DNA of 34,379 bases, taken from IMG/VR virus record IMGVR_UViG_2778261181_000004. One strand, given 5' to 3'. The notes below the pieces were generated by a model that ran no database searches, was not told the DNA's origin, and saw only the letters and a program-made list of their open reading frames with translations. The position numbers and the translations under genes were made by a program. Origin of the DNA: a virus. Taxonomy: Duplodnaviria > Heunggongvirae > Uroviricota > Caudoviricetes. Below, piece by piece: positions 9,219 to 27,472 of this stretch. Each line of letters begins with the position of its first letter. The first letter of the stretch is position 1.

Positions 9219-9315
9219 AGGAGCACCATTTCTTTAATTACTAAGTAATCTTAGTTTTTATTGACCTAAGATAGATTGATAATTAACATCTAATAAAACT
9301 TAGTTTGGAGGGCAT
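9219..9315. promoter_or_regulatory. Right operator/promoter region (oR / pR / pRM analogue)
   Basis: Inverted repeat ACTAAGTAATCTTAGT at 9240-9255; CTTAGTT copies at 9250-9256 and 9299-9305; candidate -35 TTGACC (9261-9266) and -10 TAACAT (9284-9289); GGAGGG RBS before the cro-like ATG. Confidence 0.5.
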
Positions 9316-9516
9316 ATGACGACTGACGATATCGAAAGCTACTTCGGCAGCATTGAGAAAGTTGCTGCTTTTTTCGGCATAACAACTGAAGCCGTTTATC
9401 AGTGGCGAAACCGTCCTGGCCAGTTAATTCCAAAAGGACGTGCAGCAGAGGCTGCATATAGAACTTGCGGACGGTTGCCATTTAAACCTGAGCTTTATGA
9501 AAAATCTAATGGATAA
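9316..9516 (+). CDS. Cro-like transcriptional regulator (YdaS-type)
   Basis: 66-aa HTH protein divergent from the repressor; GGAGGG RBS 4 nt upstream. Confidence 0.75.
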   Translation: MTTDDIESYFGSIEKVAAFFGITTEAVYQWRNRPGQLIPKGRAAEAAYRTCGRLPFKPELYEKSNG

Positions 9517-9553
9517 ATCGATTTACAGAAACCACAGATATGAGGGCTTAAAC

Positions 9554-10138
9554 GTGGGTAAAGAACCTGAATGGAAAGTTGATAAGCAACCAGCATGGCT
9601 GGTGGCAGCAATACGAAGAACGATTGCTGATTTACCTCATGGCTATGAGGAAGCAGCAGAAATTCTTGGTTTGTATAAATCTGATGATATCACCCCAGCA
9701 AAAGATCAATTGCATAACAGACTGCGTAGCGGTGGGGATCAAATTTTTCCACTTGAGTGGGCCATGGTTTTACAGGATGCCAGTGGTACCAGGCATGTAA
9801 CGGATGCAATAGCCCGTCGTAGTAATGGGGTGTTTGTGCCGCTGGTGGTCATTGATGACATTGACAATGGTGACATTAATCAGCGGCTGATGGAGTCAAT
9901 AGAATGGATTGGCAAGCATTCCCAGTACTTACGCAAGGCAACTGCTGATGGAGTTATTGACCAAGCTGAGCGTGAGCAAATCGAAGAGAACAGCTACCAA
10001 GTAATGGCGAAGTGGCAGGAGCATTTAACACTGTTATTTCGTGTTTTTTGTGCGCCGGAAAAGAGTAACGCCCGCGAGTGTGCAGCTCCGGGCGTCGTGG
10101 CGTCGATTGCTTCTGGTTGTGGAGAAACTAACGCATGA
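9554..10138 (+). CDS. CII-like regulatory protein (phage CP76 / YdaT-type family)
   Basis: Immediately downstream of the cro-like gene; preferred start GTG 9554 with GAGGG RBS 8 nt upstream (alternative ATGs at 9497 and 9509; ORF-track start 9440 overlaps cro). Confidence 0.6.
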
Positions 10139-10473
10139 ACAGTTTAACAACACACTACCGTCGTTCGCAACTGATTGCGCTTCCTGTACCGGGTGGAAAA
10201 GCGAAGGTGGAATATTGCTATGCAGTGAATGTACCAGGTGACAGGGAAATTGTAACCCACAGCTTTGCAGAGTGGGCTGTGGGTGATTTCAACCGGCAGA
10301 AGGAGACAGTCCTTTGCGACAAGTTAACCGCTGGTTCAAAGATCACTACGGAGTGCCCGTCAGAGTCATTCGTTGGGAGCCGGAAACACAACGGGTTATC
10401 TACCTCCGTGAAGGCTATGAACATGAGTGCTTCAGCCCGCTCGAACAGTTTCGTCGTAAATTCAGGGAAATAG
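10135..10473 (+). CDS. Hypothetical protein between the cII-like and O-like genes; C-terminal third may be out of frame
   Basis: ATGA overlap with the upstream stop; ends 10 nt before the O-like start; a second frame (TTG 10314, AAGGAG RBS, to 10526) encodes more protein-like sequence. Confidence 0.4.
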
Positions 10474-10482
10474 AGGTCGGTC

Positions 10483-11475
10483 ATGAGCCTGTTAATGACA
10501 TCCCAGCCCATTGTGATAAATCGTGATCTTGCATGCCGTATTGGTCTGAATGAGGCAATTGTGTTGCAGCAGCTTCATTACTGGCTGAATGAAACGAATT
10601 CCGGCACTGAGCATGGCGGAATTCGCTGGGTTTATAACACGACAGAACAGTGGCTGGAGCAGTTTCCGTTCTGGTCAGAGTCCACTCTGAAACGCACATT
10701 TGCAAGCCTGAAATCACTTGGGGTTTTGCGTCGCGAGCAACTCAATAAATCGAAGCGTGACATGACCAACTTCTACACGATCAACTATGAAAGTGAGCTT
10801 CTAGAAGAGGTCAAAGTGAACGAATCCATCAGGTCAAAATGCACTTCTCCATCGGGTCAAAGTGACCTGATGGATGGGCGCAAAATGACACGATCCATTG
10901 GTTCAAAACGACACGCTGTCATCGGGTCAAAATGGCCCAATGATCTTACAGAGAATACAACAGAGATTACTACAGAGAATAAAACCTCTTCTCGTCCGGA
11001 CGCTTCGCAACCGGACACGCAGATGGCTGAACAGGATTTTTTAACTCGCCATCCTGATGCGGTTGTATTCAGCCCTAAAAAGCGCCAGTGGGGAACGCAG
11101 GATGATTTGACCTGCGCACAGTGGCTCTGGAAAAAAATCATCGCTCTGTACGAGCAGGCCGCCGAATGTGACGGCGAAGTGGTACGTCCTAAAGAACCGA
11201 ACTGGACAGCCTGGGCAAACGAAATTCGCCTGATGTGTGTACAGGATGGGCGTACTCACAAACAAATCTGCGAGATGTACAGCCGCGTCAGCCGCGATCC
11301 GTTCTGGTGCCGTAACGTGCTCAGCCCGTCGAAGCTGCGGGAAAAATGGGATGAGCTTTCCCTGCGCTTATCGCCGTCCGTCAGCACGCACACAGAAAAA
11401 CGCGAAGACCCGTACTTCAAAGCCAGTTACGACAATGTGGACTACAGCCAGATCCCGGCAGGATTCAGGGGGTGA
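10483..11475 (+). CDS. Replication initiation protein, lambda O-like, with the origin embedded in the gene
   Basis: Position after the cII-like gene; internal iteron array and adjacent AT-rich tract; AGAGG RBS. Confidence 0.7.
   Translation: MSLLMTSQPIVINRDLACRIGLNEAIVLQQLHYWLNETNSGTEHGGIRWVYNTTEQWLEQFPFWSESTLKRTFASLKSLGVLRREQLNKSKRDMTNFYTINYESELLEEVKVNESIRSKCTSPSGQSDLMDGRKMTRSIGSKRHAVIGSKWPNDLTENTTEITTENKTSSRPDASQPDTQMAEQDFLTRHPDAVVFSPKKRQWGTQDDLTCAQWLWKKIIALYEQAAECDGEVVRPKEPNWTAWANEIRLMCVQDGRTHKQICEMYSRVSRDPFWCRNVLSPSKLREKWDELSLRLSPSVSTHTEKREDPYFKASYDNVDYSQIPAGFRG
10805..10940 (+). repeat. Origin iterons: about six direct repeats of a GGTCAAA(A/G)TG-type core
   Basis: Cores at about 10809, 10830, 10855, 10878, 10901 and 10925 (spacing 21-25 bp), followed by an AT-rich ACAGAGA-repeat tract at 10941-10990. 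Confidence 0.6.
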
Positions 11476-11477
11476 TC

Positions 11478-11966
11478 ATGAGTCTTTTGAATGAAGCTCA
11501 GAAATTCATTGAAGCCCATCCGGGGTGTACTTCCGGAGACATTGCGGATGCTTTTGCAGGTTACTCACGGCAGCGCGTTCTGCAGTCAGCAAGCAAGTTA
11601 CGTCAGAGTGGGCGTGTGGCTCACCGTTGTGAAGGAGATACACGCAGACATTTCCCACGCCTGACTGAGAGAGCGCAGGAGCCGGAACCACAACCAGTTC
11701 GTGAAACCAGACCTGTGCGCAATTTCTATGTCGGCACTAACGATCCCCGGGTGATTTTGTGCCTGACCCGCCAGGCTGAAGAACTGGAGTCCAAGGGCTT
11801 ATACCGTCGTGCTGCAACCGTGTGGATGGCGGCATTCCGTGAAAGCCACTCCCAGTCAGAACGAAACAATTTTCTGGCGCGCCGTGAGCGGTGCTTACGG
11901 AAAAGCAGCAAGCGCGCTGCATCGGGTGAAGAGTGGTATCTGTCAGGGAATTACGTGGGGGCTTAA
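11478..11966 (+). CDS. YfdN-like protein; C-terminal region resembles PerC/ANR-type regulators (tentative)
   Basis: ATG 11478 after AGGGGGTG, overlapping the O-like stop; C-terminal LTRQAEELESKGLYRRAATVWMAAF motif; sits where lambda P would be. Confidence 0.5.
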   Translation: MSLLNEAQKFIEAHPGCTSGDIADAFAGYSRQRVLQSASKLRQSGRVAHRCEGDTRRHFPRLTERAQEPEPQPVRETRPVRNFYVGTNDPRVILCLTRQAEELESKGLYRRAATVWMAAFRESHSQSERNNFLARRERCLRKSSKRAASGEEWYLSGNYVGA

Positions 11967-12619
11967 TGAGTAATAAATATTGCCAGGCGCTGGTGGAACT
12001 GCGGAACAAACCAGCCCATGAACTGAAGGAAGTGGGCGATCAGTGGCGCACGCCGGACAACATTTTCTGGGGAATTAACACCCTGTTTGGCCCGTTTGTT
12101 CTGGATCTGTTCACTGACGGTGATAACGCCAAATGTGCCGCGTATTACACGGCGGAAGATAACGCGCTGGCGCATGACTGGTCAGAACGTCTTGCGGAGC
12201 TTAAAGGTGCTGCCTTTGGTAATCCCCCATACAGCCGCGCCAGTCAGCATGAGGGGCAATACATCACCGGCATGCGTTACATCATGAAACATACCAGTGC
12301 CATGCGTGATAAGGGCGGGCGCTATGTTTTCCTGATCAAAGCTGCCACCAGCGAAGTGTGGTGGCCGGAAGATGCGGACCATATTGCTTTTATTCGCGGG
12401 CGTATTGGTTTTGAACTGCCTGCCTGGTTTATCCCGAAGGATGAGAAGCAGGTGCCGACAGGAGCTTTCTTCGCTGGTGCTATTGCTGTTTTCGACAAGA
12501 CCTGGAAGGGACCGGCAATCAGCTACATCGGGCGCGATGAACTTGAGGCATGTGGTGAAGCCTTTCTGGTGCAGGTTCGCCAGCAGGCGGAAAAACTGGT
12601 CAGGGAGATGGCAGCATGA
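11966..12619 (+). CDS. Phage Dam-like N6-adenine DNA methyltransferase
   Basis: Catalytic NPPY motif (FGNPPYS); TAATG overlap with the upstream stop; typical nin-region location. Confidence 0.75.
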   Translation: MSNKYCQALVELRNKPAHELKEVGDQWRTPDNIFWGINTLFGPFVLDLFTDGDNAKCAAYYTAEDNALAHDWSERLAELKGAAFGNPPYSRASQHEGQYITGMRYIMKHTSAMRDKGGRYVFLIKAATSEVWWPEDADHIAFIRGRIGFELPAWFIPKDEKQVPTGAFFAGAIAVFDKTWKGPAISYIGRDELEACGEAFLVQVRQQAEKLVREMAA

Positions 12620-12942
12620 CGACGTTAACTCAATGCCAGCAGCAGGTGCTGGATATGCTGATTTCTTACCAGAAAGAACGTGGCTTCCCGCCAACCAATC
12701 AGGAGGTGGCAACCATGCTGGGATACCGTTCAGTGAATGCAGCGGTGGAGCATCTTCGCGCACTGGAGAAAAAAGGCGTCATTACGATAAAGCGTGGCGT
12801 GGCCCGGGGGATAACGCTTCATACCGCAGTGAAGGACGACGACAGAGAGGCGGTCGGGATTATCCGCTCACTGCTTGCCGGTGAGGAAAACGCAAGGCTG
12901 CGTGCAACCCACTGGTTACATGAGAGGGACCTGAAAGTATGA
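12616..12942 (+). CDS. LexA DNA-binding-domain-like protein lacking the S24 autopeptidase domain
   Basis: N-terminal 70 aa (QQQVLDMLISYQKERGFPPTNQEVATMLGYRSVNAAVEHLRALEKKGVI) closely parallels the LexA N-terminal winged helix; protein ends after about 108 aa. Confidence 0.7.
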   Translation: MTTLTQCQQQVLDMLISYQKERGFPPTNQEVATMLGYRSVNAAVEHLRALEKKGVITIKRGVARGITLHTAVKDDDREAVGIIRSLLAGEENARLRATHWLHERDLKV

Positions 12943-13328
12943 AGCTGATCCTGCCTTTTCCGCCCAGCGTGAACACGTACTGGCGACATCCCAACAAAGG
13001 GGCGTTTGCTGGTAAGAGCCTGATAAGCGCGGCGGGGCGAAAATTCCAGAGCGCGGCGTGCGCAGCAATAGTTGAGCAGTTACGTCGTCTGCCAAAACCA
13101 ACGTCGGCACCTGCTTCAGTGGAGATCGTGTTGTTTCCTCCGGATAACCGGATCCGCGATCTGGACAACTATAACAAGGCGCTGTTTGACGCCCTGACCC
13201 ACGCGGGTGTGTGGGAAGACGACAGTCAGGTGAAAAGAATGCTGGTGGAGTGGGGACCGGTTATCCCGGAAGGGAAGGTCGAGATCACCATCAGTAAGTA
13301 CGAGAAAACGGCGGGTGCAGCCGCCTGA
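12939..13328 (+). CDS. rusA: RusA-family Holliday junction resolvase
   Basis: ATGA overlap with the upstream gene; motif pattern LPFPPSVNTYWRH ... DLDNYNKALFDALT ... WEDDSQV matches RusA. Confidence 0.8.
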   Translation: MKLILPFPPSVNTYWRHPNKGAFAGKSLISAAGRKFQSAACAAIVEQLRRLPKPTSAPASVEIVLFPPDNRIRDLDNYNKALFDALTHAGVWEDDSQVKRMLVEWGPVIPEGKVEITISKYEKTAGAAA

Positions 13329-13347
13329 TCAAGAGGAGAAACGAAGT

Positions 13348-14157
13348 ATGAATAATCTGATGGTCATTGATGGTATTGAAGTTCGTCGTGATGCTTATGG
13401 GCGTTACAGCCTGAACGATCTGCACAGGGCTGCCGGGGGAGAACAAAAAAACCGCCCGAAATACTGGCTCTCCAATAAGCAAACCTGTGAATTGATTGAA
13501 CAACTTTTCACCGAGGGTGGAATTCCGCCTCTGGAACAAAATCAACCAGTTAGCGTCATTAATGGCGGAAATAACCAGGGGACGTATGTCTGCAAAGAAC
13601 TGGTGTATGCCTATGCAATGTGGATCAGCCCGTCATTCCATCTGAAGGTGATCCGTACTTTCGACATGGTAACCAGCGCACCGGAAAAATTATCCGGACA
13701 GGCTGCTGACAAGATGCAGGCTGGCGTGATCCTGCTGGACTTTATGCGCCGGGAATTAAATCTGTCTAACTCATCAGTGCTTGGAGCCTGTCAGAAGCTT
13801 CAGGAGGCTGTTGGCTTACCGAATCTGGCACCGCGCTATGCCATTGATGCTCCTGCTGACGCGCCTGATGGCTCAAGTCGCCCCACGCTGTCGCTGAGTG
13901 CACTGCTGAAGCAGTATGGTATCCGCCTGACAGCTAATCAGGCATATCACCAGATGGCGAAGCTGGGGATCGTTGAACAACGTGAACGATACAGCCGCAC
14001 TGCGATTAACAACATCAAAAAATTCTGGTCGCTGACAGCGAAAGGCTGCATGTTCGGCAAAAACATCACCAGTCCCGCAAATCCGCGCGAGACGCAGCCG
14101 CATTTCTTCGAATCCCGATTCCCTGAGCTGTTAAAGCTGCTCGATACCGTTCATTGA
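13348..14157 (+). CDS. KilA-N domain protein (antirepressor-like) with uncharacterised C-terminal domain
   Basis: ATG 13348 with GAGGAG RBS; N-terminal KilA-N-like region MNNLMVIDGIEVRRDAYGRYSLNDL ... ELVYAYAMWISPSFHLKVIRTFD. Confidence 0.6.
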   Translation: MNNLMVIDGIEVRRDAYGRYSLNDLHRAAGGEQKNRPKYWLSNKQTCELIEQLFTEGGIPPLEQNQPVSVINGGNNQGTYVCKELVYAYAMWISPSFHLKVIRTFDMVTSAPEKLSGQAADKMQAGVILLDFMRRELNLSNSSVLGACQKLQEAVGLPNLAPRYAIDAPADAPDGSSRPTLSLSALLKQYGIRLTANQAYHQMAKLGIVEQRERYSRTAINNIKKFWSLTAKGCMFGKNITSPANPRETQPHFFESRFPELLKLLDTVH

Positions 14158-14158
14158 G

Positions 14159-15154
14159 GTGACCGTGAGAGCACTACTGACCCCTGAAATTGCCCCGCGT
14201 ATGGGGATCGTATTGTTCAGGCCAGGTTCAGAGCTGATGCCCCTGTTTATGCAGGGGCGTGTTCTGCTGGAGCCTGAGCCGGAACGTTACTCATCTTTCG
14301 CCAGTGGTGCCGTTCCGGCGGCATCACAACCGCTGGCGGATGATCCTGCCGTTCGGGCCGTGTTCCGCAATGAGGCAGTGATCCGTCGTGCTGGTGGCGT
14401 GGAATGTCTTGAAAGCTGGTTACTTCGTGAAAAAGGCTGCCAGTGGCCTCATTCCGACTGGCACAGCGAGAACATGACCACAATGCGACACGCTCCGGGT
14501 GCAATCCGTCTGTGCTGGCACTGCGATAACCAGCTGCGCGATCAGTTCACGGAACGGCTGGAATCAATGGCAACGGATAACTGTGCCCGCTGGGTGTTGT
14601 CTGTTGTGCGTCGGGATCTCGGTTTTGATGATAGTCACGTTGTGACAATGCCGGAACTGTGCTGGTGGCTGATTCGTAATGATCTGGCGGATGCCTTACC
14701 GGAAAGTGCAGCCCGTAAGGCACTGAGATTACCGAAGCCTGTTGTGCCGTCTGTTACCCGGGAAAGTGACCTTGTGCCTTCGGTTCCTGCCACCAGCATC
14801 ATCCAGGATAAAGTGAAAAAGGTGCTGGCGCTGAAAGTGGATCCGGAGTCGCCGGAGTCTTTTATGTTACGCCCAAAACGTCGCCGCTGGGTTAATGAAA
14901 AGTACACGCGCTGGGTTAAGACACAGCCGTGTGCATGTTGTGGTAAGCCTGCTGATGATCCCCACCACCTGATAGGTCACGGTCAGGGTGGAATGGCTAC
15001 AAAAGCGCATGACCTCTTTGTGTTGCCTTTGTGCAGAAAGCATCACGACGAGCTGCATGCGGATACCGTGGCATTTGAAGAGAAGTATGGCTCCCAGCTG
15101 GAGCTGATATTTCGTTTTATCGATCGTGCGCTGGCAATAGGCGTGCTGGCCTGA
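14159..15154 (+). CDS. DUF968-family nin-region protein with C-terminal HNH/zinc-finger-like motif
   Basis: GTG start 2 nt after the upstream stop; C-terminal CACCGK ... DPHHL ... LPLCRKHHDELH cluster. Confidence 0.55.
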   Translation: MTVRALLTPEIAPRMGIVLFRPGSELMPLFMQGRVLLEPEPERYSSFASGAVPAASQPLADDPAVRAVFRNEAVIRRAGGVECLESWLLREKGCQWPHSDWHSENMTTMRHAPGAIRLCWHCDNQLRDQFTERLESMATDNCARWVLSVVRRDLGFDDSHVVTMPELCWWLIRNDLADALPESAARKALRLPKPVVPSVTRESDLVPSVPATSIIQDKVKKVLALKVDPESPESFMLRPKRRRWVNEKYTRWVKTQPCACCGKPADDPHHLIGHGQGGMATKAHDLFVLPLCRKHHDELHADTVAFEEKYGSQLELIFRFIDRALAIGVLA

Positions 15155-15171
15155 TTTTGTGGAGAAAGTTG

Positions 15172-15543
15172 ATGCGTGATATTCAAATGGTTCTTGAACG
15201 TTGGGGGGCATGGGTGGCAAATAATCACGAGGATGTGGAATGGTCATCTGTTGCTGCAGGTTTTAAGGGATTAATTCCTTCGAAAGTAAAATCCCGCCCG
15301 CAATGTAGCGATGACGATGGCCTGATCATTAGCTCTGCGATGACAGTTCTTAAGAAAAAGGAACCGTATCAATACGAATTACTGGAAATGTATTATGTGT
15401 ATGGGGTTACATTACGGGCGTTGGGGGTAAAACTGGGGATATCACTTAATCAGGTTGTTATCAGACTGCAGAAAGCTGAAGGGTTTATTGACGGTTGTCT
15501 GGCAATGTTGGGGGTATCTTTAGAAATTGATTGTTACATATAG
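15172..15543 (+). CDS. Late-gene antiterminator Q (phage 82/21-type Q family)
   Basis: ATG 15172 with GGAG 7 nt upstream; N-terminus MRDIQMVLERWGAWVANN matches the Q-family start; lies upstream of the lysis cassette. Confidence 0.7.
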   Translation: MRDIQMVLERWGAWVANNHEDVEWSSVAAGFKGLIPSKVKSRPQCSDDDGLIISSAMTVLKKKEPYQYELLEMYYVYGVTLRALGVKLGISLNQVVIRLQKAEGFIDGCLAMLGVSLEIDCYI

Positions 15544-15618
15544 TAATAAATTCAATCAAAGTAAATAATCATATTTTATTATAACCTCCTGATGATACCT
15601 GTTCATTGGGAGGTTATT

Positions 15619-16236
15619 ATGGATAAAAATGTAGAGCATGTATTAGTTGATGCAATTGAAAATAAGCTATCTTTAACAGTCGTTTACTTAGGAGGGAGCC
15701 AGCCCGGAACATTAAGGAATATTTCTCCGATTAGTATAAATGGGGATAAATTGCGGGCAAGATGCCATAGTTCTGGAGCAGTAAAGGTTTTCAATCTTGG
15801 GAAAATACAGTTACCCAGTGACTCCTGCGCGGTATCTATGCACTATGGAGATTTAGAAGTTAAAGCTTATGAGACGATGCAGAGCGTAAATGACAACTTT
15901 CATGCCCTTTATCCTGAAGGACGATGGGGTGTTGATTTTAATGAGCATCGCTTTGCTTTATTTGATTTTTTTAAAAACGGGAAACGAAAAAAAACGGCAT
16001 TTATGGCAATTGAGTTCAGGGAAAGAGATGAAGAGAAAATAATAACAGGTGTAACAATTGATATTGGTATATCTGGAACAGTGATTTCTGAGAAGTCCCG
16101 AATCCCAAAAAGACGACCATGGGTAGTGGTTGGTCCCGAACACGGAGAATACAGTACTTATTCAACTTTGGACAAGGCTGCTACAGCGTTTTTTGAGAGG
16201 CTATCGTTGATAGCATCCGGCCTGGAAGATAATTGA
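15619..16236 (+). CDS. Hypothetical protein, AT-rich moron directly downstream of Q; function unknown
   Basis: ATG 15619 with GGGAGG RBS; 205 aa; composition clearly more AT-rich than flanking genes; no motif recognised. Confidence 0.6.
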   Translation: MDKNVEHVLVDAIENKLSLTVVYLGGSQPGTLRNISPISINGDKLRARCHSSGAVKVFNLGKIQLPSDSCAVSMHYGDLEVKAYETMQSVNDNFHALYPEGRWGVDFNEHRFALFDFFKNGKRKKTAFMAIEFRERDEEKIITGVTIDIGISGTVISEKSRIPKRRPWVVVGPEHGEYSTYSTLDKAATAFFERLSLIASGLEDN

Positions 16237-16365
16237 TTTTATGTTTGGTATTCAGAGTTCGCCGTGCTTAAGAAAGTCAAGATTCTAAAAATACTGAATG
16301 AGCTACTTGTGTTATAACAAAAATGCTATTAGTGTGTTAAGAGTGGTTACTTCGACACACAACTT

Positions 16366-16390
16366 AAACCCGCCACTGAGCGGGTTTTTT
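16366..16390 (+). terminator. Intrinsic terminator downstream of the moron
   Basis: AAACCCGC / GCGGGTTT stem, CACTGA loop, then TTTTTT. Confidence 0.7.
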
Positions 16391-16488
16391 GTACCTGTAA
16401 ACTTGGTGCAGTACAGTAAACACGCTGGTGGTCGTGAATACTGACTTTTTATCTTGCTGGCTTTTTAGACAAGAGTTATTGGTATGTC

Positions 16489-16716
16489 ATGTTAACCAGA
16501 AGGGAAAAAGACATGCTAAAACAGCAAGATATGACAGAAACCGCCGCCGCAGTCCTTCATTTCTTACCTGCTGACAAGTGGGTAACGCCACGCATGATGA
16601 CGAGAACTACCGGAGTAAGCGAAGCCCGGTGCCAGTTAATACTGACTCAGTTAGTTCTGGCGGGTCTGGCGAAGGATAACGGCGGGTACGGGAATAAATT
16701 CAGACGCTGCCAGTAA
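16489..16716 (+). CDS. Small putative DNA-binding (winged-helix-like) protein upstream of the methyltransferase
   Basis: 75-aa ORF; alternative start ATG 16513 with AAGGGA RBS; weak helix-turn-helix-like segment TRTTGVSEARCQLILTQLVLAGLA. Confidence 0.4.
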   Translation: MLTRREKDMLKQQDMTETAAAVLHFLPADKWVTPRMMTRTTGVSEARCQLILTQLVLAGLAKDNGGYGNKFRRCQ

Positions 16717-16866
16717 TGGCGGTTTCCTGCTGTGAAAATGGGCGGCTGGTGGGTGTTGGTAGCACCTGCCAGCCATTCGCTCATGCTTACTGGTCACAAG
16801 CGAACCACGGCCCACTGCTTTAGCGCAAAAGCAGAGTGAGCCTACCAGAGTTACGCTTACTGATCC

Positions 16867-17919
16867 ATGAAAAATACTGTAAAAATAAACAGTGTTGATT
16901 TAATCAACGCTGATTGCCTGCATTTTATTCAGTCCCTGCCTGATGATTCCATTGACCTGATTGTTACCGATCCGCCGTACTTCAAGGTGAAACCCAACGG
17001 TTGGGACAATCAGTGGAAAGTGGACGAAGATTACCTTAAGTGGCTGGACCACTGCCTGGCCCAGTTCTGGCGGGTGTTAAAACCTGCCGGAAGCCTTTAT
17101 CTGTTCTGTGGGCATCGCTTGGCATCTGATATTGAGATCATGATGCGTGAACGTTTCAACGTGCTTAACCATATCATCTGGGCGAAGCCGTCCGGACGTT
17201 GGAATGGGTGTAATAAAGAAAGTCTGCGCGCATATTTTCCTGCCACAGAGCGCGTTCTGTTTGCTGAACATTACCAGGGGCCATATCGCGGCAAAAGTGA
17301 CGGCTATGCAGCAAAAGAAAGGGAACTCAAACAGCACATAATGGCACCGCTGATATCGTATTTCAGGGATGCTCGTGCCGAACTGGGTATAACGGCAAAA
17401 CAAATTGCCGAAGCCACAGGTAAGAAAAATATGGTTTCCCACTGGTTTGGTGCCAGTCAGTGGCAGTTGCCGAATGAGGCTGACTATCGGAAGTTACAGG
17501 CACTGTTTTCCCGTATAGCGGCAGAGAAGTTTCAGGAACAACAACTGGAACAACCACACCACCAGCTGGTGGCATCTTATGATTCACTGAATCGCAAATA
17601 TTCTGAATTGCTGGATGAGTTTAAATCTCTCCGGCGCTATTTCTCCGTATCAGTCTCCGTGCCTTATACCGATGTCTGGATGCATAAACCCGTTCAGTTC
17701 TACCCGGGGAAACATCCGTGTGAGAAACCGGCGGATATGCTCAGGCAAATAATCAATGCCAGTAGTCGACCAGGTGATCTGGTTGCTGATTTTTTTATGG
17801 GATCCGGTTCCACAATAAAAGCAGCAATGGCGCTGGGGCGTCGGGCCTTAGGTGTTGAGCTTGAGTCAGAGCGGTTTAACCAGACAGTGACAGAGATAAA
17901 CGAGCTGGTGGGGAAATAA
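16867..17919 (+). CDS. Orphan beta-class DNA methyltransferase (N6-adenine or N4-cytosine)
   Basis: DPPY motif near the N-terminus (LIVTDPPYF) and AdoMet-binding FxGxG near the C-terminus (DFFMGSGST); no adjacent restriction endonuclease gene. Confidence 0.8.
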
Positions 17920-17925
17920 TCTGGT

Positions 17926-17950
17926 GGCCACGTCAGGTGGCCTTTTTATT
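17926..17950 (+). terminator. Intrinsic terminator between the methyltransferase and the holin
   Basis: GGCCAC / GTGGCC stem with GTCAG loop, followed by CTTTTTATTT. Confidence 0.6.
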
Positions 17951-17986
17951 TCCATTACACAGCACCCGCATCTGCGAGGTGGGGTT

Positions 17987-18202
17987 ATGAAATCCATGGA
18001 TAAGTTAACAACGGGTGTCGCCTATGGCACCTCAGCAGGTAGTGCCGGGTACTGGTTTTTACAGTTGCTCGATAAAGTCACGCCCTCACAGTGGGCGGCA
18101 ATAGGTGTGCTGGGTAGTCTGGTATTTGGCTTGCTGACGTATCTGACAAACCTTTATTTCAAGATTAAAGAAGACAAGCGTAAGGCTGCACGGGGAGAGT
18201 AA
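17987..18202 (+). CDS. Holin with dual-start motif (class II-like, 71 aa)
   Basis: Tandem starts ATG 17987 and ATG 17996 (M-K-S-M) after GAGGTGGGG RBS; TM segments; charged C-terminus [13 protein letters not shown]. Confidence 0.75.
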
Positions 18203-18206
18203 TTCA

Positions 18207-18557
18207 ATGACTCAAAACTATGAACTGATTGTGAAAGGGATCCGCAATTTTGAGAATAAAGTTACGGTAACTTTAGCATTACAGGACAAAGAACGCTTTG
18301 ACGGTGAAATTTTTGACCTGGACATCTCGCTGGACCGTGTTGAAGGTGCTGCGCTGGAGTTTTATGAGGCAGCGGCCAGAATGAGCATCAGACAGGTCTT
18401 CCTGGATGTCGCTGCCGGGTTATGTGAAGGGGATGAGCAGTCGCCGGAAAAGCGCCCCGTAATTTTAGAGGCGCAGAATGTATGGATAACCTACAAAGGA
18501 AAGCTACCGGGAAGGATTACTGGTTCTCTGAAGACTCCTCCGGAATCACAACCTTAA
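18207..18557 (+). CDS. YdfR-like (DUF1327-type) protein in the lysis cassette
   Basis: 116-aa ORF starting 5 nt after the holin stop; same position as ydfR between essQ and rrrQ in E. coli Qin; family from memory. Confidence 0.5.
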   Translation: MTQNYELIVKGIRNFENKVTVTLALQDKERFDGEIFDLDISLDRVEGAALEFYEAAARMSIRQVFLDVAAGLCEGDEQSPEKRPVILEAQNVWITYKGKLPGRITGSLKTPPESQP

Positions 18558-18620
18558 GTCACTGACCGGAACAGATAAACCTGTCCGTGGGCAGAAACCG
18601 ATAAATCCTGATAAATATCC

Positions 18621-19154
18621 ATGAACGCAAAAATCAGATACGGCCTGTCGGCTGCCGTTCTGGCACTGATTGCCGTCGGTGCGCCCGCGCCTGATATTCT
18701 CGACCAGTTTCTGGATGAAAAAGAAGGTAACCACACAACGGCATACCGCGATGGGTCCGGCATCTGGACCATCTGTCGGGGTGCCACGATGGTGGATGGA
18801 AAACCCGTTTTTCCCGGTATGAAACTGTCGAAGGAAAAATGCGACCAGGTCAACGCCATTGAGCGTGATAAGGCGCTGGCATGGGTGGAGCGCAATATTA
18901 AAGTACCACTGACCGAGCCACAAAAAGCGGGTATCGCGTCATTTTGTCCCTATAACATTGGCCCCGGTAAGTGTTTTCCGTCGACGTTTTATAAGCGGCT
19001 GAATGCTGGTGATCGTAAAGGTGCATGCGAGGCGATTCGCTGGTGGATAAAAGATGGTGGGCGCGATTGCCGCATACGTTCAAATAACTGCTATGGGCAA
19101 GTTATTCGTCGTGACCAGGAAAGCGCATTAGCCTGTTGGGGGATAGATCAGTGA
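18621..19154 (+). CDS. SAR endolysin (phage lysozyme, T4/P21-type)
   Basis: N-terminal weakly hydrophobic Ala/Gly-rich signal-anchor-release segment ([18 protein letters not shown]); catalytic E-x8-D-x5-T triad ([16 protein letters not shown]). Confidence 0.85.
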
Positions 19155-20124: not shown

Positions 20125-20948
20125 CCATTACAAAGCCTATCTACGGGTGGGTTTGATAATGGCTTATACCCTGCACGGGATAACTTAACTGATATCCCTT
20201 TTAACGGATAAACGGAGCCAACAATGGCAGAGAATGTCGGCATTATGGCAGTGAAATTTGGATAAATCGGGGATTAGAAAGATAGAGGCGAGCCGGTCAG
20301 GTAGAAATGAATCAGGCTCAAAGTGAAGCGGAAAAGGTCTGTGGCACAAACTGATGCTGCCATAATTACAGCCTGATGACTTGTGGAATGAAACATGTTG
20401 AACCTCCTTAATTGATGTGATTCGAGTGAGGAAGGCATTCTGTCCTTCTATAGTGTCCAGTAAATCAAACAGGAAGCTTGTCTCACGTGTGAGACAAGCC
20501 TCTCCCATCAGTGAGTTGTATTGATCTCGACTCTTCAAAGAATTCATTACTGGGTAGATGAAAATAGTTTCACGATGAATGGAGGAGGCTATGTTGGTGG
20601 CTTCTTCATTGGAGTACATATGCCCCCACGAACCCCAAAAACCTGCCGTGTTCGCGGCTACCGCAATACCACCACAGATCCGTCAGGCTATTGCAAAAGC
20701 CACAAAAGCGAAGGCTGGAAGCAATACAAGCCGGGCCAGTCCTGTCATCAGCGCGGTTATGGTTCGCGGGGTTGTCCCTCATGCTCGCCAGTCCTGTGCG
20801 GGGGTGGAAGAAACAGGACACTCACACAGATTCTTGTGGGTCGATGCTATTCCTTTCTGGATTATCCCGATGCCATTCATGCAAGGGCTGTATAAGACGT
20901 TCGTCATGGCTGTCAGGCTGACGGGTCCTCCCGGTGGGGTGGCCTGCC

Positions 20949-20968
20949 ACGGGGCGGGAGCGTCGCGG
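20949..20968. other. Candidate cosN (cohesive end site)
   Basis: ACG-GGGCGGGAGCGT-CGCGG resembles the lambda cosN neighbourhood ACG-GGGCGGCGACCT-CGCGG as I recall it; 12-mer at 20952-20963; lies 196 bp upstream of the terminase small-subunit start, close to the lambda cosN-to-Nu1 spacing. Confidence 0.5.
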
Positions 20969-21147
20969 AAAAAGGCTAGTTTTTGCATTTCCATGGCGGC
21001 GGCAGCATGTTTGGTAATTTATTGATAGTTAAAAGTTATTTCTCTTTTCACCTGTACAATATTTTTTTCTCCCTGTCATTAGACCAGTTTGCAATTAATT
21101 GAAATATATAAATAAACCTGATTTTCACCTGCCAGATGGAGTTGCTT

Positions 21148-21675
21148 ATGTCAAATGTGAGCGGGATCGGTGATGCTTATTACTGGAGTGTTTTTAAAAT
21201 CGCCGAGGCCTTTGGGCTTCACCGGGACACAGTAAAAAAACGGCTCCTCGCGGCCAACACTCCTGTGGCTGCGACTGTCAGGGGGAACCCCGTTTACGCC
21301 CTGCAGCATGTCGGGCCCGCCCTGTTTAGTGTGAAGCATGAGGCAGCAGACTCTGTTCATGATCCATCCCGTATGGAGCCGAAAGAGAGAAAGGACTGGT
21401 ACCAGTCTGAAAATGAAAGGATCAAGCTGGAAAAGGAGCAGCGAAAACTCATCCCAGTTGATGAAGTAGTCATCGTCTATTCGTCCATGAGAAAGGCTGT
21501 CGTCCAGGTTCTGGAGACAATTCCGGATGTTCTTGAACGCGATTGCGCCCTGACTCCTCAGGCCGTCGGCGTTGTACAGCAGGCCATTGATGACCTGCGA
21601 TACACTCTTCAGGAAAAATCCTACGAGGCTTGTGCTGCTGAATTAATTCCTGATGAGGAAGGAGAGAGTCTCTAG
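21148..21675 (+). CDS. Terminase small subunit (Nu1-like)
   Basis: ATG 21148 with GGAG 7 nt upstream; N-terminal HTH-like region; directly precedes the large subunit. Confidence 0.75.
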   Translation: MSNVSGIGDAYYWSVFKIAEAFGLHRDTVKKRLLAANTPVAATVRGNPVYALQHVGPALFSVKHEAADSVHDPSRMEPKERKDWYQSENERIKLEKEQRKLIPVDEVVIVYSSMRKAVVQVLETIPDVLERDCALTPQAVGVVQQAIDDLRYTLQEKSYEACAAELIPDEEGESL

Positions 21676-21683
21676 GAGGAATA

Positions 21684-23783
21684 ATGGGTTTTTCATCAGC
21701 CCGAAATTTGGGAAGGGACATATCGGCAGGATTTTCCCCACCACGTCGCATGCCGATTTCGGAGGCTGTTAAAAAATTCATGCGTGTTCCCAAGGGGGCT
21801 GGTAACTCGGTGCCATGGGATCCTGAACTGACACCCTACATCATTGAGCCCATGAACTGCCTGGCATCGCGTGAATACGATGCGGTGATTTTTGTTGGTC
21901 CTGCGCGAACAGGGAAGACCATTGGTCTGATCGATGGATGGATTGTCTATACCATCGTTTGCGATCCTTCGGACATGCTCGTTGTGCAGATGACCGAAGA
22001 TAAGGCCCGCGAGCATTCTAAAAAGCGCCTCGACAGAACGTTCAGAAGCAGTGCGGCGGTAAAGAAAAGAATGAGTCCACGTCGTAACGACAATAATGTC
22101 CATGATAAGACGTTCAGGGATGGCTCGTTCCTTAAAATTGGTTGGCCCTCGGTCAACATTATGTCGTCGTCGGATTACCGGTTTGTCGCCTTAACCGATT
22201 ACGACCGTTTTCCGGAGAATATCGATAGCGAGGGTGATGGTTTCTCCCTGGCCTCAAAACGTACCACCACATTTATGTCCGCCGGGATGACTCTGGTGGA
22301 GAGCTCGCCGGGACGTGACATCTGCGACAGCAAATGGCGACGTAAGTCGCCTCATGAAGCGCCACCGACGACTGGTATTCTTTCCCTTTACAATCGTGGT
22401 GACCGCCGCCGCTGGTACTGGCCATGTCCGCACTGCGGTGAATATTTTCAGCCAGCCATGGATACCATGACCGGCTACCGTAATGAACCGGATCCCTTTA
22501 AAGCCAGTGAGGCGGCGTATCTACTTTGCCCGCACTGCAGCGGCATTATCACTGCGGAGAAAAAGCGTGAGCTCAATAGTGCAGGAGTCTGGTTGCGTGA
22601 AGGTCAGGTCATTGATCGTAACGGCAACGTTTCCGGTGAACCGCGCCGCTCCCGTATCGCCAGTTTCTGGATGGAAGGGCCAGCTGCTGCGTATCAGACC
22701 TGGGCGCAACTGGTTTACAAATTACTGACTGCAGAACAGGAGTATGAAGCGACAGGAAGCGAAGAAACACTCAGGGCGGTTATCAATACCGACTGGGGAT
22801 TACCTTATCTTCCCCGCGCCAGCATGGAGCAACGAAAAAGTGAACTGCTTGAGCAGCGGGCAGAGCCAGTTCCTTCCCGCAGTGTGCCGGATGGCGTTAA
22901 TTTCCTTGTGGCGACAGTGGATGTGCAGGCGGGACGTCATCGCCGTTTTGTGGTTCAGGTAACGGGCTATGGCAGCCGTGGCGAACGCTGGATTATTGAT
23001 CGTTACAACATCACGCAGTCATTGCGCGGTGACAGCGACGGGGAGAGCCAGCGAATTGATCCGGCCAGCTATCCGGAAGACTGGGATGTCCTGCTGACGG
23101 ATGTTTTTCATAAAAGCTGGCCGCTGGCCTCCGATCCTTCTCAACAAATGCGACTGATGGCAATGGCGGTGGACTCCGGCGGTGAAGACGGGGTCACTGA
23201 TAATGCCTATAAATTCTGGCGTCGTTGCCGTCGTGATGGCCTTGGTAAACGTATTTACCTGTTTAAGGGCGACAGCATCCGGCGCGCAAAACTGATCACC
23301 CGTACATTCCCTGATAACACCGGACGAACGGGCCGACGGGCGCAGGCCGCAGGTGATGTACCGCTCTGGCTTCTTCAGACGGATGACCTGAAAGACCGGG
23401 TGAATAACGCGTTATGGCGTGACTCGCCAGGTCCCGGCTATGTGCATTTCCCTGACTGGCTGGGGAGCTGGTTTTACGACGAACTGACGTATGAAGAGCG
23501 GAGCAGTGACGGGAAATGGAGTAAGCCGGGTCGCGGTGCCAACGAAGCTTTTGACCTGATGGTGTATGCCGAGGCTCTGGTCATTCTGCATGGATACGAA
23601 AAGATCCGCTGGCCGGATGCACCGGAGTGGGCGAGCCGGGAAACCTGGCTGGAGTGTGTCCAGGACAGTACCGAACCGTCATCCTCACCGGAACCGGTAT
23701 CCACGCCTGTTAAAAAACAAAAACGGAAGAAAACAGTAACTGACGATGTTAACCCCTGGCTGACTTCCGGAGGATGGTTATGA
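21684..23783 (+). CDS. Terminase large subunit (lambda gpA family)
   Basis: 699 aa; Walker A-like GPARTGKT; AGGAGG RBS; size and position as lambda A. Confidence 0.85.
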   Translation: MGFSSARNLGRDISAGFSPPRRMPISEAVKKFMRVPKGAGNSVPWDPELTPYIIEPMNCLASREYDAVIFVGPARTGKTIGLIDGWIVYTIVCDPSDMLVVQMTEDKAREHSKKRLDRTFRSSAAVKKRMSPRRNDNNVHDKTFRDGSFLKIGWPSVNIMSSSDYRFVALTDYDRFPENIDSEGDGFSLASKRTTTFMSAGMTLVESSPGRDICDSKWRRKSPHEAPPTTGILSLYNRGDRRRWYWPCPHCGEYFQPAMDTMTGYRNEPDPFKASEAAYLLCPHCSGIITAEKKRELNSAGVWLREGQVIDRNGNVSGEPRRSRIASFWMEGPAAAYQTWAQLVYKLLTAEQEYEATGSEETLRAVINTDWGLPYLPRASMEQRKSELLEQRAEPVPSRSVPDGVNFLVATVDVQAGRHRRFVVQVTGYGSRGERWIIDRYNITQSLRGDSDGESQRIDPASYPEDWDVLLTDVFHKSWPLASDPSQQMRLMAMAVDSGGEDGVTDNAYKFWRRCRRDGLGKRIYLFKGDSIRRAKLITRTFPDNTGRTGRRAQAAGDVPLWLLQTDDLKDRVNNALWRDSPGPGYVHFPDWLGSWFYDELTYEERSSDGKWSKPGRGANEAFDLMVYAEALVILHGYEKIRWPDAPEWASRETWLECVQDSTEPSSSPEPVSTPVKKQKRKKTVTDDVNPWLTSGGWL

Positions 23784-23992
23784 ACCAGAATGATATCGAA
23801 GCCATGATTCAGCGTTATACGGAAGCTGAAATGGCGGTGCTGGACGGAAAATCCGTCACTTTTAATGGTCAGCAGATGACCATGGAAAACTTATCTGAGA
23901 TCCGGCAGGGGCGGCAGGAGTGGGAGCGCCGCCTTGCGGCTCTGATTACACGACGACGGGGGCATCCCGGGTACCGGCTGGCGAGGTTCTGA
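23780..23992 (+). CDS. Head-tail joining protein gpW-like
   Basis: 70-aa product ending RRRGHPGY (lambda W ends RRRGPAGF); ATG 23780 after GGAGGA; overlaps the terminase stop. Confidence 0.75.
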   Translation: MNQNDIEAMIQRYTEAEMAVLDGKSVTFNGQQMTMENLSEIRQGRQEWERRLAALITRRRGHPGYRLARF

Positions 23993-25500
23993 TGGCAATT
24001 CTTGATGATGTGATTGGCGTTTTTTCACCTGGATGGAAAGCGGCAAGGCTGCGTTCCCGTGCGGTGATCCAGGCTTATGAGGCCGTAAAAACGACGCGGA
24101 CACACAAAGCCCGGCGGGAAAACCGAACTGCCGACCAGTTAAGCCAGTACGGGGCCGTGTCGTTACGTGAGCAGGCCCGTTACCTTGATAACAACCACGA
24201 TCTGGTTATTGGTGTATTTGACAAGCTGGAAGAACGGGTGGTGGGGAAAAACGGGATTATTGTCGAGCCACATCCGGTATTACGCAATGGGGCCATTGCC
24301 CGTGACCTGGCAGCGGAGATACGCACCCGATGGAGTGAATGGTCTGTCAGTCCGGAAGTCACCGGGCAGTTCACCCGCCCGATGCTGGAACGTCTGATGC
24401 TGCGTACCTGGCTGCGCGATGGTGAGGTGTTTGCCCAGATGGTTTCCGGGCGCATAAACAGCCTGACGCCTTCTGCCGGTGTTCATTTCTGGCTGGAGGC
24501 GCTCGAGCCGGACTTTATTCCCATGACCAGTGATGAGAGCAACAGGCTGAATCAGGGCGTGTTTGTTGATGACTGGGGGCGTCCCGAAAAATATCTGGTG
24601 TATAAAAGCCGTCCCGTATCCGGACGGCAGATGGAAACCAAAGAAGTGGATGCAGAGCGAATGCTGCATCTTAAATTTGTTCGCCGTCTGCACCAGATGC
24701 GCGGGACGTCTTTGTTGTCCGGTGTGCTGATCCGCCTCAGTGCCCTGAAAGAGTATGAAGATTCTGAGCTGACTGCAGCAAGGATCGCCGCTGCTCTGGG
24801 GATGTACATCCGCAAAGGCGACGGGCAGAGCTATGAACCGGATGGTAATGGCAGCAAGGATAAGGAACGCGAGCTTACCATTCAGCCAGGCATTATTTAC
24901 GACGATCTGAAACCCGGCGAAGAAATCGGAATGGTGAAGTCGGATCGTCCCAATCCTAACCTTGAAACTTTTCGTAATGGTCAGTTGCGTGCCGTGGCGG
25001 CGGGCAGTCGTCTGAGTTTTTCCAGTACAGCGCGCAACTATAACGGCACTTACAGCGCCCAGCGTCAGGAGCTGGTTGAATCCACTGATGGCTACCTGAT
25101 CCTGCAGGACTGGTTTATTGGTGCCGTCACCCGCCCGATGTATCGTGCCTGGCTGAAACAGGCTGTGGCATCCGGTGTTATCAGACTACCCCGCGATCTT
25201 GACCGTTCTTCACTGTATACCGCGGTGTATTCCGGACCGGTGATGCCGTGGATTGACCCTGTTAAGGAGGCTGAGGCCTGGAAAATTCAGATTCGTGGTG
25301 GAGCAGCGACAGAATCAGACTGGGTACGTGCAGGTGGTCGTAATCCGGATGATGTCAAACGTCGGCGCAAGGCCGAAATTGATGAAAACCGCAAGCTGGA
25401 TCTGGTATTTGATACCGATCCGGCCAGTGATAAAGGAGGCAGCAGTGCCGCAACGAAACGACAGGAGCCGCAGCACACCGACGACCAGTCCGAAGAATAA
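23992..25500 (+). CDS. Portal protein (lambda gpB family)
   Basis: ATG 23992 overlapping the W stop (TGATG); about 500 aa; located between W and the protease-capsid gene. Confidence 0.8.
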   Translation: MAILDDVIGVFSPGWKAARLRSRAVIQAYEAVKTTRTHKARRENRTADQLSQYGAVSLREQARYLDNNHDLVIGVFDKLEERVVGKNGIIVEPHPVLRNGAIARDLAAEIRTRWSEWSVSPEVTGQFTRPMLERLMLRTWLRDGEVFAQMVSGRINSLTPSAGVHFWLEALEPDFIPMTSDESNRLNQGVFVDDWGRPEKYLVYKSRPVSGRQMETKEVDAERMLHLKFVRRLHQMRGTSLLSGVLIRLSALKEYEDSELTAARIAAALGMYIRKGDGQSYEPDGNGSKDKERELTIQPGIIYDDLKPGEEIGMVKSDRPNPNLETFRNGQLRAVAAGSRLSFSSTARNYNGTYSAQRQELVESTDGYLILQDWFIGAVTRPMYRAWLKQAVASGVIRLPRDLDRSSLYTAVYSGPVMPWIDPVKEAEAWKIQIRGGAATESDWVRAGGRNPDDVKRRRKAEIDENRKLDLVFDTDPASDKGGSSAATKRQEPQHTDDQSEE

Positions 25501-27472
25501 TTCCTGGTTCAGGATGCAGGCTGGTCACCAGAGTGACGCGGATATTTATATTTATGACGAGATTGGTTTCTGGGGTGTTACAGCGAAGCAGTTTATCAGT
25601 GATCTGAATGCACTGGGCGATATCACCCACATTAATCTCCATATCAATTCACCGGGTGGCGATGTCTTTGAAGGCATCGCCATTTTTAATGCGCTGAAAA
25701 CACATGGTGCGTCCATTACCGTTTATGTCGACGGTGTGGCGGCGTCAATGGCGTCGGTCATTGCGATGGTGGGAAACCCGGTCATTATGCCGGAAAACAC
25801 CTTCATGATGATTCATAAACCATTTGGCTTTACGGGCGGTGATGCGGAGGACATGCGCACCTATGCCGACCTGCTCGATAAAGTTGAGGCGGTTCTGTTA
25901 CCCGCTTATGCACAGAAAACCGGGAAAACCACCGATGAAATTGCTGCCATGCTGGCAGATGAGACCTGGATGTCCGGTGCCGAATGTCTGGCACATGGAT
26001 TTGCTGATCAGGTGACGCCAGCCGTTAAGGCAATGGCATGTATTCAGTCAAAACGTACAGAGGAATTTAAAAAGATGCCGGAATCCATTCGAAACATGAT
26101 TACTCCGCCACGCAACAGTGCTCCACGCGTACAGGATAATGAACCTGCAGCCTCCCGGACGCCAGTGCAGGCAGCAGCACCCATGGTGGATGAAAACAGT
26201 ATCCGTGCGCAGGTACTGGCAGAGCAAAAAGCGCGTGTAAACGGTATTAATGATCTGTTTGCCATGTTTGGCGGGCGTTATCAGACGCTGCAGGCTCAGT
26301 GTCTTGCCGATCCTGAATGTTCGCTGGAGCAGGCCCGCGAAAAGCTGTTGAACGAGATGGGGCGCGAGTCCACGCCATCCAATAAAAATACCCCGGCTCA
26401 TATTTATGCCGGTAACGGTAATTTTGTGGGGGACGGGATCCGCCAGGCGCTGATGGCGCGTGCCGGATTTGAAAAAACCGAACGTGATAATGTCTACAAC
26501 GGGATGACCCTGCGTGAATATGCCCGTATGTCACTGACTGAACGGGGTATTGGGGTTTCCAGTTATAACCCGATGCAGATGGTCGGTGCGGCGTTCACAC
26601 ACAGTACGTCTGACTTCGGTAATATTCTGCTGGATGTTGCGAACAAAGCCATTCTGCAGGGCTGGGAAGATGCTCCTGAAACCTATGAACAGTGGACGCG
26701 GAAAGGTCAGTTGTCTGATTTTAAAATTGCCCATCGTGTGGGTATGGGGGGCTTCAGTGCTCTGCGTCAGGTGCGTGAAGGGGCGGAATATAAATACGTC
26801 ACCACCGGAGATAAACAGGCCACTATTGCACTGGCGACCTATGGCGAGCTGTTCAGTATCACCCGTCAGGCCATTATCAATGATGATCTGAATATGCTGA
26901 CCGATGTCCCGATGAAACTGGGCCGTGCGGCGAAATCCACTATTGCCGATCTGGTTTATGCCATTCTGACGTCTAACCCGAAAATCTCCACAGATAATGT
27001 AAGTCTGTTCGATAAAGCGAAACATGCAAACGTACTGGAGAGCGCTGCAATGGACGTGGCATCGCTGGATAAAGCCCGCCAGTTGATGCGCGTTCAGAAA
27101 GAGGGGGAGCGTCATCTGAATATTCGTCCTGCGTTCGTACTGGTACCGACGGCGATGGAGTCTGTTGCTAACCAGGTCATTCGCTCCTCAAGTGTCAAGG
27201 GGGCTGACATTAACGCCGGTATTATTAACCCGGTGAAAGATTTTGCGACCGTTATTGCAGAGCCTCGTCTTGATGATAACAGCCAGACCACCTTCTACCT
27301 GGCTGCGTCAAAAGGCTCCGATACGATTGAAGTGGCTTATCTCAACGGTGTGGATACGCCATATATTGATCAGATGGAGGGCTTCAGTGTGGATGGCGTG
27401 ACAACGAAAGTGCGTATTGACGCCGGTGTCGCGCCAGTTGATCACCGCGGTCTGGTGAAATGTACGGCGTAA
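25445..27472 (+). CDS. Fused head maturation protease (ClpP/S14-like) - scaffold-like linker - major capsid protein
   Basis: Single ORF with N-terminal ClpP-like domain, Ala/Gln-rich helical middle region and C-terminal capsid-like domain; preferred start GTG 25445 with AAAGGAGG 5 nt upstream, overlapping the portal 3' end (ORF-track start 25253 is deeper inside portal). Confidence 0.75.
   Translation: MPQRNDRSRSTPTTSPKNNSWFRMQAGHQSDADIYIYDEIGFWGVTAKQFISDLNALGDITHINLHINSPGGDVFEGIAIFNALKTHGASITVYVDGVAASMASVIAMVGNPVIMPENTFMMIHKPFGFTGGDAEDMRTYADLLDKVEAVLLPAYAQKTGKTTDEIAAMLADETWMSGAECLAHGFADQVTPAVKAMACIQSKRTEEFKKMPESIRNMITPPRNSAPRVQDNEPAASRTPVQAAAPMVDENSIRAQVLAEQKARVNGINDLFAMFGGRYQTLQAQCLADPECSLEQAREKLLNEMGRESTPSNKNTPAHIYAGNGNFVGDGIRQALMARAGFEKTERDNVYNGMTLREYARMSLTERGIGVSSYNPMQMVGAAFTHSTSDFGNILLDVANKAILQGWEDAPETYEQWTRKGQLSDFKIAHRVGMGGFSALRQVREGAEYKYVTTGDKQATIALATYGELFSITRQAIINDDLNMLTDVPMKLGRAAKSTIADLVYAILTSNPKISTDNVSLFDKAKHANVLESAAMDVASLDKARQLMRVQKEGERHLNIRPAFVLVPTAMESVANQVIRSSSVKGADINAGIINPVKDFATVIAEPRLDDNSQTTFYLAASKGSDTIEVAYLNGVDTPYIDQMEGFSVDGVTTKVRIDAGVAPVDHRGLVKCTA

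Follow-up and report, generated by a model that had tools for sequence, protein, structure and literature searches.

The DNA analysed here, called the window below, is a single stretch of 34,379 nucleotides and corresponds to the late region of a lambda-like prophage of E. coli. An endolysin gene and an Rz-like ORF lie upstream of cos, the genes for the small and the large terminase subunits (TerS and TerL) and a lambda-family portal gene follow downstream, and cos occupies the gap of about 1 kb that separates the terminase genes from those for lysis, a place equivalent to that of cos in lambda. The features are collected in Table 1, where signed positions are counted from the first base of the predicted cohesive end (+1, position 20952). 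We also noticed an ORF of 739 amino acids at 25253-27472, downstream of the portal gene.

Table 1. Features of the cos region and its neighbourhood in the window.
Feature	Position	Strand	Remarks
Endolysin gene	18621-19154		Phage_lysozyme; upstream of cos
cosQ-like heptamer GGGTCCT, candidate packaging-termination subsite	20923-20929	+	ends 22 bp before the top-strand nick
Putative cosN, ACG-GGGCGGGAGCGT-CGCGG (20-mer ACGGGGCGGGAGCGTCGCGG)	20949-20968	+	match to the lambda ends
Predicted 12-nt 5' cohesive end GGGCGGGAGCGT	20952-20963	+	by homology
I2-type spacer CGCGGAAAAAGGCTAGTTTTTG	20964-20985	+	A5 tract and T5 tract; shared between packaging specificities
R3-like zone CCATGGCGGCGGCAGCATGTTTGG, candidate small-terminase binding site	20991-21014 (+40 to +63)	none	tentative
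IHF consensus TATCAATAAATTA (WATCAANNNNTTR), candidate I1 bend site	21015-21027 (+64 to +76)	-	
TTTTCACCTG, copy 1, candidate R2	21045-21054 (+94 to +103)	+	exact 10-mer repeat
TTTTCACCTG, copy 2, candidate R1	21122-21131 (+171 to +180)	+	ends 6 nt before the GGAG ribosome-binding site
Small terminase gene (terS), DUF1441 family, 175 aa	21148-21675	+	Pfam and PHROG
Large terminase gene (terL), lambda gpA type	21684-23783	+	Pfam
Portal gene, lambda-family	23920-25500		downstream of the terminase genes

Just upstream of cos there is a truncated gene for an HNH endonuclease, of which an N-terminal fragment is present at approximately 20600-20766 (ORF 20521-20895). Residues 31-82 of the fragment match positions 14-70 of the 175 positions of PHROG 144, and the DNA at 20700-20766 shows 94% identity to the HNH genes of SfI, SfIV and SfV. 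The fragment is probably the relic of an HK97/SfV-type packaging module that was left upstream of cos by recombination, and its presence indicates a past rearrangement. In L143, a metagenomic relative whose TerS is 75% identical to that of the window, a gene at 69-317, likewise just upstream of cos, encodes an Acb2/Tad1-hairpin protein of an anti-defence family; this shows the segment to the left of cos to be a slot for variable cargo.

The terminase subunits

The product of terS was assigned to the small terminases by its matches to Pfam DUF1441 (E 1.6e-44) and to PHROG 141, 'terminase small subunit' (E 8e-65). Its ATG at 21148 has GGAG 6 nt upstream and is aligned with the starts of related proteins (MSNVSG... 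or MSNISN...); the in-frame ATG at 21136, which is the start given in the record of phage cdtI, is without a Shine-Dalgarno sequence. The protein is 100% identical in the phages cdtI, Tritos and HannyBb.

In the initial annotation this protein had been described as Nu1-like, which did not hold as far as the family is concerned. TerS matches only DUF1441 and falls outside Phage_Nu1 (PF07471), the family that lambda Nu1 matches at 2.5e-100. A direct BLASTP comparison of TerS with lambda Nu1 was not significant (E 4.6), and hhalign gave a probability of 30% with 8 sequences and of 1% with 46. The predicted fold of the protein was more favourable to the description. A single-sequence AlphaFold model was discarded owing to its pLDDT of 44.7; the model (AF2) built on 46 homologues had a pLDDT of 85. 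In the latter, residues 7-60 form a MerR-like winged helix-turn-helix of beta-alpha-alpha-beta-beta-alpha topology, after which long helices follow. The best structural matches of this N-terminal domain were RacA, BldC, Pukovnik Xis, MerR regulators and the DNA-binding domain of pSK1 Par, and no direct match to the gpNu1 structure was obtained. Lambda Nu1 itself gives weak Pfam matches to MerR and HTH_17. Because of these matches and the predicted MerR-type N-terminal domain of TerS, the protein plausibly works like Nu1 without belonging to the Nu1 family.

The large subunit matches the Pfam families GpA_ATPase (3e-81) and GpA_nuclease (3e-86) and can be aligned by BLASTP with lambda gpA at 25% identity over 624 columns (E 5e-22). 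This gpA-type protein would be the nuclease that nicks cosN. Terminases of the gpA type go with 5' cos ends.

cosN, cosQ and the ends of related phage genomes

The segment at 20949-20968 had been singled out in the initial annotation for its likeness to lambda cosN, and comparison with the lambda ends taken from NC_001416 (...CCGACAGGTTACG-GGGCGGCGACCT-CGCGGGTTTTCGC, that is, ...GTTACG before and CGCGGG after the 12-mer) bore this out. The flanks ACG and CGCGG are identical in both and the 12-mers agree at 8 of 12 positions; the left half is the same at 6/6 positions, and the mismatches lie at positions 7, 8, 9 and 11. Even when up to 3 mismatches are allowed, the 20-mer ACGGGGCGGGAGCGTCGCGG has no second copy in the window, and 0 are expected by chance. 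Likewise, it is the sole site in the window that matches the lambda 20-mer at 16 or more of 20 positions, against an expectation of 0.025. As in lambda and Gifsy-1, each of the two nick positions has a CG dinucleotide, at a distance of 12 bp from the other. The claim that the spacing to the small-terminase start is near that of lambda also proved right: counted from base 1 of the 12-mer, the terS ATG at 21148 lies at a distance of 196 bp, and nu1 of lambda at 190 bp.

In the 60 bp upstream of the nick, the heptamer GGGTCCT is the only 7-mer common to lambda, Gifsy-1, LLS and the window. We take this heptamer to be exactly cosQ. It ends 22 bp from the nick in the window and LLS; in lambda and Gifsy-1 the interval is 23 bp. 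A 7-bp cosQ is highly conserved in lambda-like phages (Feiss et al. 2015, PMC4669245). According to the same authors, lambda-like phages are defined by 12-base 5' extensions similar to those of lambda; the left half of cosN is conserved, as is the CG dinucleotide at each nick, and bp 7-12 are naturally variable, Gifsy-1 differing at 8, 9 and 11 (Feiss et al., PMC4669245). All four mismatches between the window and lambda fall within these variable base pairs. From this homology we infer nicks at 20951/20952 in the top strand and at 20963/20964 in the bottom strand, and a 5' polarity of the overhang. A full-text search of the literature for the 12-mer GGGCGGGAGCGT returned only one unrelated paper.

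The Salmonella phage Gifsy-1, the cos of which is listed by the Feiss laboratory among lambda-like cos sites, comes very close to the window in this segment. Its cos has the order GGGTCCT, 23 nt, GGGCGGCAGCGT, CGCAGG, and its 12-mer GGGCGGCAGCGT differs from that of the window at position 7 only. Gifsy-1 is different in having a TerS of the Nu1/phage-21 type, lambda-type head genes and clear R3, R2 and R1 repeats.

We then compared 20700-21400 with phage records using megablast. Base 1 of both the cdtI (AB285204.1) and the Tritos (OV696610.1) record aligns to position 20952 of the window, the first bases being GGGCGGGAGCGTCGCGG..., so that both records start at GGGCGGGAGCGT. Both finish with ...CTGCCACG (...CCACG), which corresponds to the predicted nick and is the equivalent of 20951; the last bases are ...GGCCTGCCACG in cdtI and ...CCCCTGCCACG in Tritos. 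The two phages share with the window an identical cosN 12-mer with its flanks, a cosB with 99-100% identity from +1 to +200, and an identical TerS. They differ from it upstream of about -30, where the sequence is mosaic; in cdtI there is one change beside cosQ (GGGTCCTTCC) and other DNA further to the left. In neither record is cos an annotated feature. Tritos is prophage 3 of E. coli LF82, yields virions and was plaque-purified. Its paper mentions no cos and gives no account of how the record was opened, and in the infant-gut phage papers the determination of ends is not described. The authors of LLS inferred their own cos from homology and from the type of TerL. With the LLS cos obtained in this way and the Tritos paper silent on the opening, the starts of the deposited records may in turn have been set by analogy with lambda. 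Those who work on these phages evidently put the end of the chromosome at precisely this site, which is not the same as proof of measured ends.

Other phages with a TerS of the DUF1441 family were examined at the homologous place. LLS (PQ299149.1) carries there the annotation '5' extended single-strand cohesive site GGGCGGCGCGCT', 12 nt long, and the record of Hafnia phage yong2 begins at the other nick, in register and 12 bp further right. Cyanophage Cr-LKS3, with a TerS 38% identical to that of the window, reportedly has 5'-extended cohesive ends that start with GGGC between lambda-like flanks and are 9 nt long; since this is not 12 nt, the length of the overhang is not fixed in the wider clade. 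Fels-1 and PSTCR8lys have ACG, a 12-mer and CGCGG, and seven metagenomic or genomic relatives (L142-L149) have ACG or GAG, a 12-mer and CGCGG or a near variant of it. In most of these seven the first 3-4 bases of the 12-mer, GGG(G/C), are kept and the rest is variable.

Several irregular sites were also seen. The flanks in Gifsy-2 (L015:385-425) are CCACG and CGCGGG with 14 nt between them, and in VT1-Sakai (L018:339-385), with ACACG-GGGCGGGCGGG-CGCGG, the distance is 11 nt, or 12 nt if the flank is shifted. Either these prophages have damaged cos sites or the overhang is variable in length. The virion-derived record LR595868.1 (mEp460_4F5; L008:1-30, L005:1180-1197) begins 5 nt to the left of the nick (CCACGGGGCGGGAGCG-CGG...), and 3 nt are missing in or beside the 12-mer of the cohesive end. 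This has the look of an artefact that arose in assembly where the DNA physically ends. In LR597641.1 (mEp460_ev081; L007:1212-1407) about 98 bp are repeated as a perfect tandem duplication, which takes in the right-hand part of the spacer and the greater part of the mEp460-type cosB with its R3-, IHF- and R2-like elements.

Candidate cosB elements and packaging specificity

The initial annotation had placed cosB within 20964-21147. Divergence between packaging modules does begin inside this interval, at +35, but its first 22 bp (20964-20985) turned out to be an I2-type spacer that window-type and mEp460-type modules have in common, and the specificity-determining cosB starts at approximately 20986. 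The spacer is kept in relatives whose TerS is 55-85% identical, and its A/T tracts are conserved with lambda and Gifsy-1; the I2 region of lambda (bp 18-50) contains poly-dA and poly-dT tracts.

To the right of the spacer we aligned nine cos regions from phages with a TerS 55-85% identical to that of the window. The positions conserved among them were the R3-like zone, TAA....TGAT, an A.CTG core at +94 to +103 and a second A.CTG core just before the ribosome-binding site of terS. In the R3-like zone the pattern [C/G]AT..C..CA.CA.GT is kept in position in the 9 related regions, and the location of the zone agrees with that of lambda R3, about 47 bp from the nick. The IHF consensus occurs 2 times in the window against 1.67 expected and is not significant alone; it lies where lambda and Gifsy-1 have I1, and TAA....TGAT stays in place across cosB regions that have otherwise diverged. 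The pair of exact TTTTCACCTG repeats, which the repeat search had not reported, was confirmed by a pattern search. The motif is found at the same two positions in L143 and at the second position in PSTCR8lys. When R3, R2 and R1 were tested for a shared motif, the best shared 8-mer scored 6.22 within a phage and 5.89 between phages; because the contrast is weak, the R sites are regarded as candidates only. With up to one mismatch, TTTTCACCTG occurs at 11 sites in the window (13227 and 24022 among them) against 2.56 expected, a number that no shuffle reached, and the sites beyond the two cosB copies are mostly inside coding regions.

Compared with lambda, in which the order is cosQ-cosN-I2-cosB with R3-I1-R2-R1 inside cosB, the window has an unrelated cosB sequence and a DUF1441 instead of a Nu1-family TerS. 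In addition, R2 of lambda is inverted relative to R1 and R3, whereas the candidate R2 and R1 of the window (TTTTCACCTG) are direct repeats. Closer to the window are phages of the mEp460 type (mEp460, ev081, 4F5), which have the same core of cosQ, cosN and spacer, and those of the mEp213/LLS type, in which this core is nearly the same; the TerS of both belongs to the DUF1441 family. In both types, however, TerS is only about 41% identical to that of the window and cosB is unrelated from +35. Between the window and mEp460 types, TerS is most divergent in its N-terminal DNA-binding part. It is known that cosB differs with packaging specificity and that lambda and phage 21 share cosQ and cosN (Feiss et al., PMC4669245). 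The different cosB and TerS on a shared cosN point to a different packaging specificity, in parallel to lambda versus phage 21.

To see how these parts are combined in a larger sample, IMG/VR was scanned with GGGCGGGAGCGTCGCGGAAAAAGG. More than 120 loci were obtained, of which 113 were usable, with 98 unique sequences; nearly all are prophages inside isolate genomes, so contig ends at the nick are uninformative. A core from -31 to +34 was conserved in the 113 loci, and its parts from -31 to -1 and from +25 to +34 lay outside the search pattern. To the left of the core the sequence is mosaic and assorts independently of the right side. To the right, from +35 on, the loci fall into two discrete classes, 33 of the window type and 80 of the mEp460 type. 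The window-type loci are at least 97% identical through cosB into terS, and the mEp460-type sequence is unrelated to theirs. In 96 of the 98 unique sequences, the type of cosB co-segregated with the 5' coding sequence of terS. This combination of a shared cosQ-cosN core and interchangeable modules of cosB and terS for specificity is the pattern of lambda and phage 21. Of 5,426 complete genomes of E. coli, 736 contain the cos/terS module of the window.

Probable packaging from cos and its alternatives

Taken together, the segment 20923-21147 is very probably the cos of a prophage that is lambda-like and of the cdtI/Tritos type. The lambda-type reading proposed at the outset is upheld by the cdtI and Tritos records opened at this place, the cosQ heptamer, the CG dinucleotides, the A/T-tract spacer and the gpA-type TerL. 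By homology with lambda, TerS of the DUF1441 type would bind during late growth to sites in cosB (approximately 20986-21131), and an IHF-induced bend at 21015-21027 would aid this binding; protein binding to the R-like and IHF candidate sites would be expected by analogy. TerS would then position the gpA-type TerL, and cosN would be nicked 12 bp apart, after 20951 in the top strand and after 20963 in the bottom strand. Virion DNA would have the 5'-protruding ends GGGCGGGAGCGT with the left end starting at 20952, and packaging would proceed to the right, from the terminase genes through those for head and tail, and terminate at the next cos of the concatemer, where cosQ (20923-20929) and cosN would both be needed for the final cut.

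The distribution of Chi octamers (GCTGGTGG) was also determined and supports this reading independently. The window contains 16 of them against 1.25 expected, all at 2880-19046 and thus left of cos, and 0 in the 13.4 kb to the right with the terminase, head and tail region; the chance that all 16 would lie to the left is about 4e-4. Thirteen of the 16 are on the + strand. As this strand ends 3' at the cosQ end, they are in the orientation that is active for RecBCD entering there, at the free right end that cleavage of cos produces. A class with 'right-end clustered Chi' has already been described for Tritos-like and LLS-like phages.

It could be argued that cos is genuine by descent and has fallen into disuse in a defective prophage. 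The truncated HNH endonuclease fragment just upstream would agree with this, as would the fact that only 34 kb of the element is visible in the window. On the other hand, all subsites are intact and the same as in Tritos and HannyBb, both of which form plaques, TerS is 100% identical, and TerL, the portal protein and the downstream ORFs are full length. With a site and a TerS identical to those of phages that form plaques, and with intact packaging genes, a relic cos is quite improbable. Less probable still is a cos with nicks that are not exactly those of lambda and an overhang other than GGGCGGGAGCGT, for instance a shorter one. The 9-nt 5' overhang reported for Cr-LKS3 with its related TerS speaks for such a shift, together with the 14 nt and about 11-12 nt between the conserved flanks of Gifsy-2 and VT1-Sakai, respectively, and a cosQ spacing that is 1 bp off that of lambda. 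However, exactly 12 bp separate the bracketing CG dinucleotides, which is also the distance in lambda and Gifsy-1. The cdtI and Tritos records start at the left nick and yong2 at the right one, again 12 bp apart and in register.

We give hardly any credence to a chance likeness, or to another element at this place (the ORF 20579-21025, a terminator or a structured RNA), with packaging initiated elsewhere or by a headful mechanism. The ORF of 148 amino acids does span the site and small hypothetical proteins are annotated there in some records, but its product has no Pfam match and only fragmentary matches to PHROGs of unknown function. Folding of the DNA at cos showed no excess over shuffled sequence (z = -0.22) and promoter and terminator scans called none at cos, by which the structured-element reading was ruled out. 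These readings are also opposed by the chance expectation of 0.025, by conservation that is centred on the motif with mosaic sequence on both flanks, and by the association of gpA-type terminases with 5' cos ends.

Beyond the identification of cos, we consider, as a doubtful proposal, that two things hold jointly: the cosB of the DUF1441 clade would be laid out unlike that of lambda, and two specificities would share one cosQ-cosN core. As for the layout, the R3-like site may be inverted relative to the two direct repeats with the CACCTG core. Because the last of these repeats ends 6 nt before the ribosome-binding site, binding of the terminase might also autoregulate the expression of terS. 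The window-type and mEp460-type specificities would probably be without cross-reaction, on one core that extends across hundreds of E. coli prophages. If this is true, hybrids with mismatched ends would be possible and cos could serve as a recombination joint.

The cos site is already known both in kind and in this instance, as the variation of cosN, the conservation of cosQ and the cosB/TerS modules are established for lambda-like phages and genomes of this phage type opened here have been deposited; it brings nothing new in principle. Its value lies in fixing the zero coordinate and the direction of packaging for a type of prophage carried by roughly one in seven complete E. coli genomes, and some prophages of the cdtI/Tritos type carry toxin genes such as cdt-I. 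The position of cos aids annotation and the reading of PhageTerm or virome coverage, and it helps to predict the DNA that cos-dependent transduction can mobilise or that satellites can hijack.
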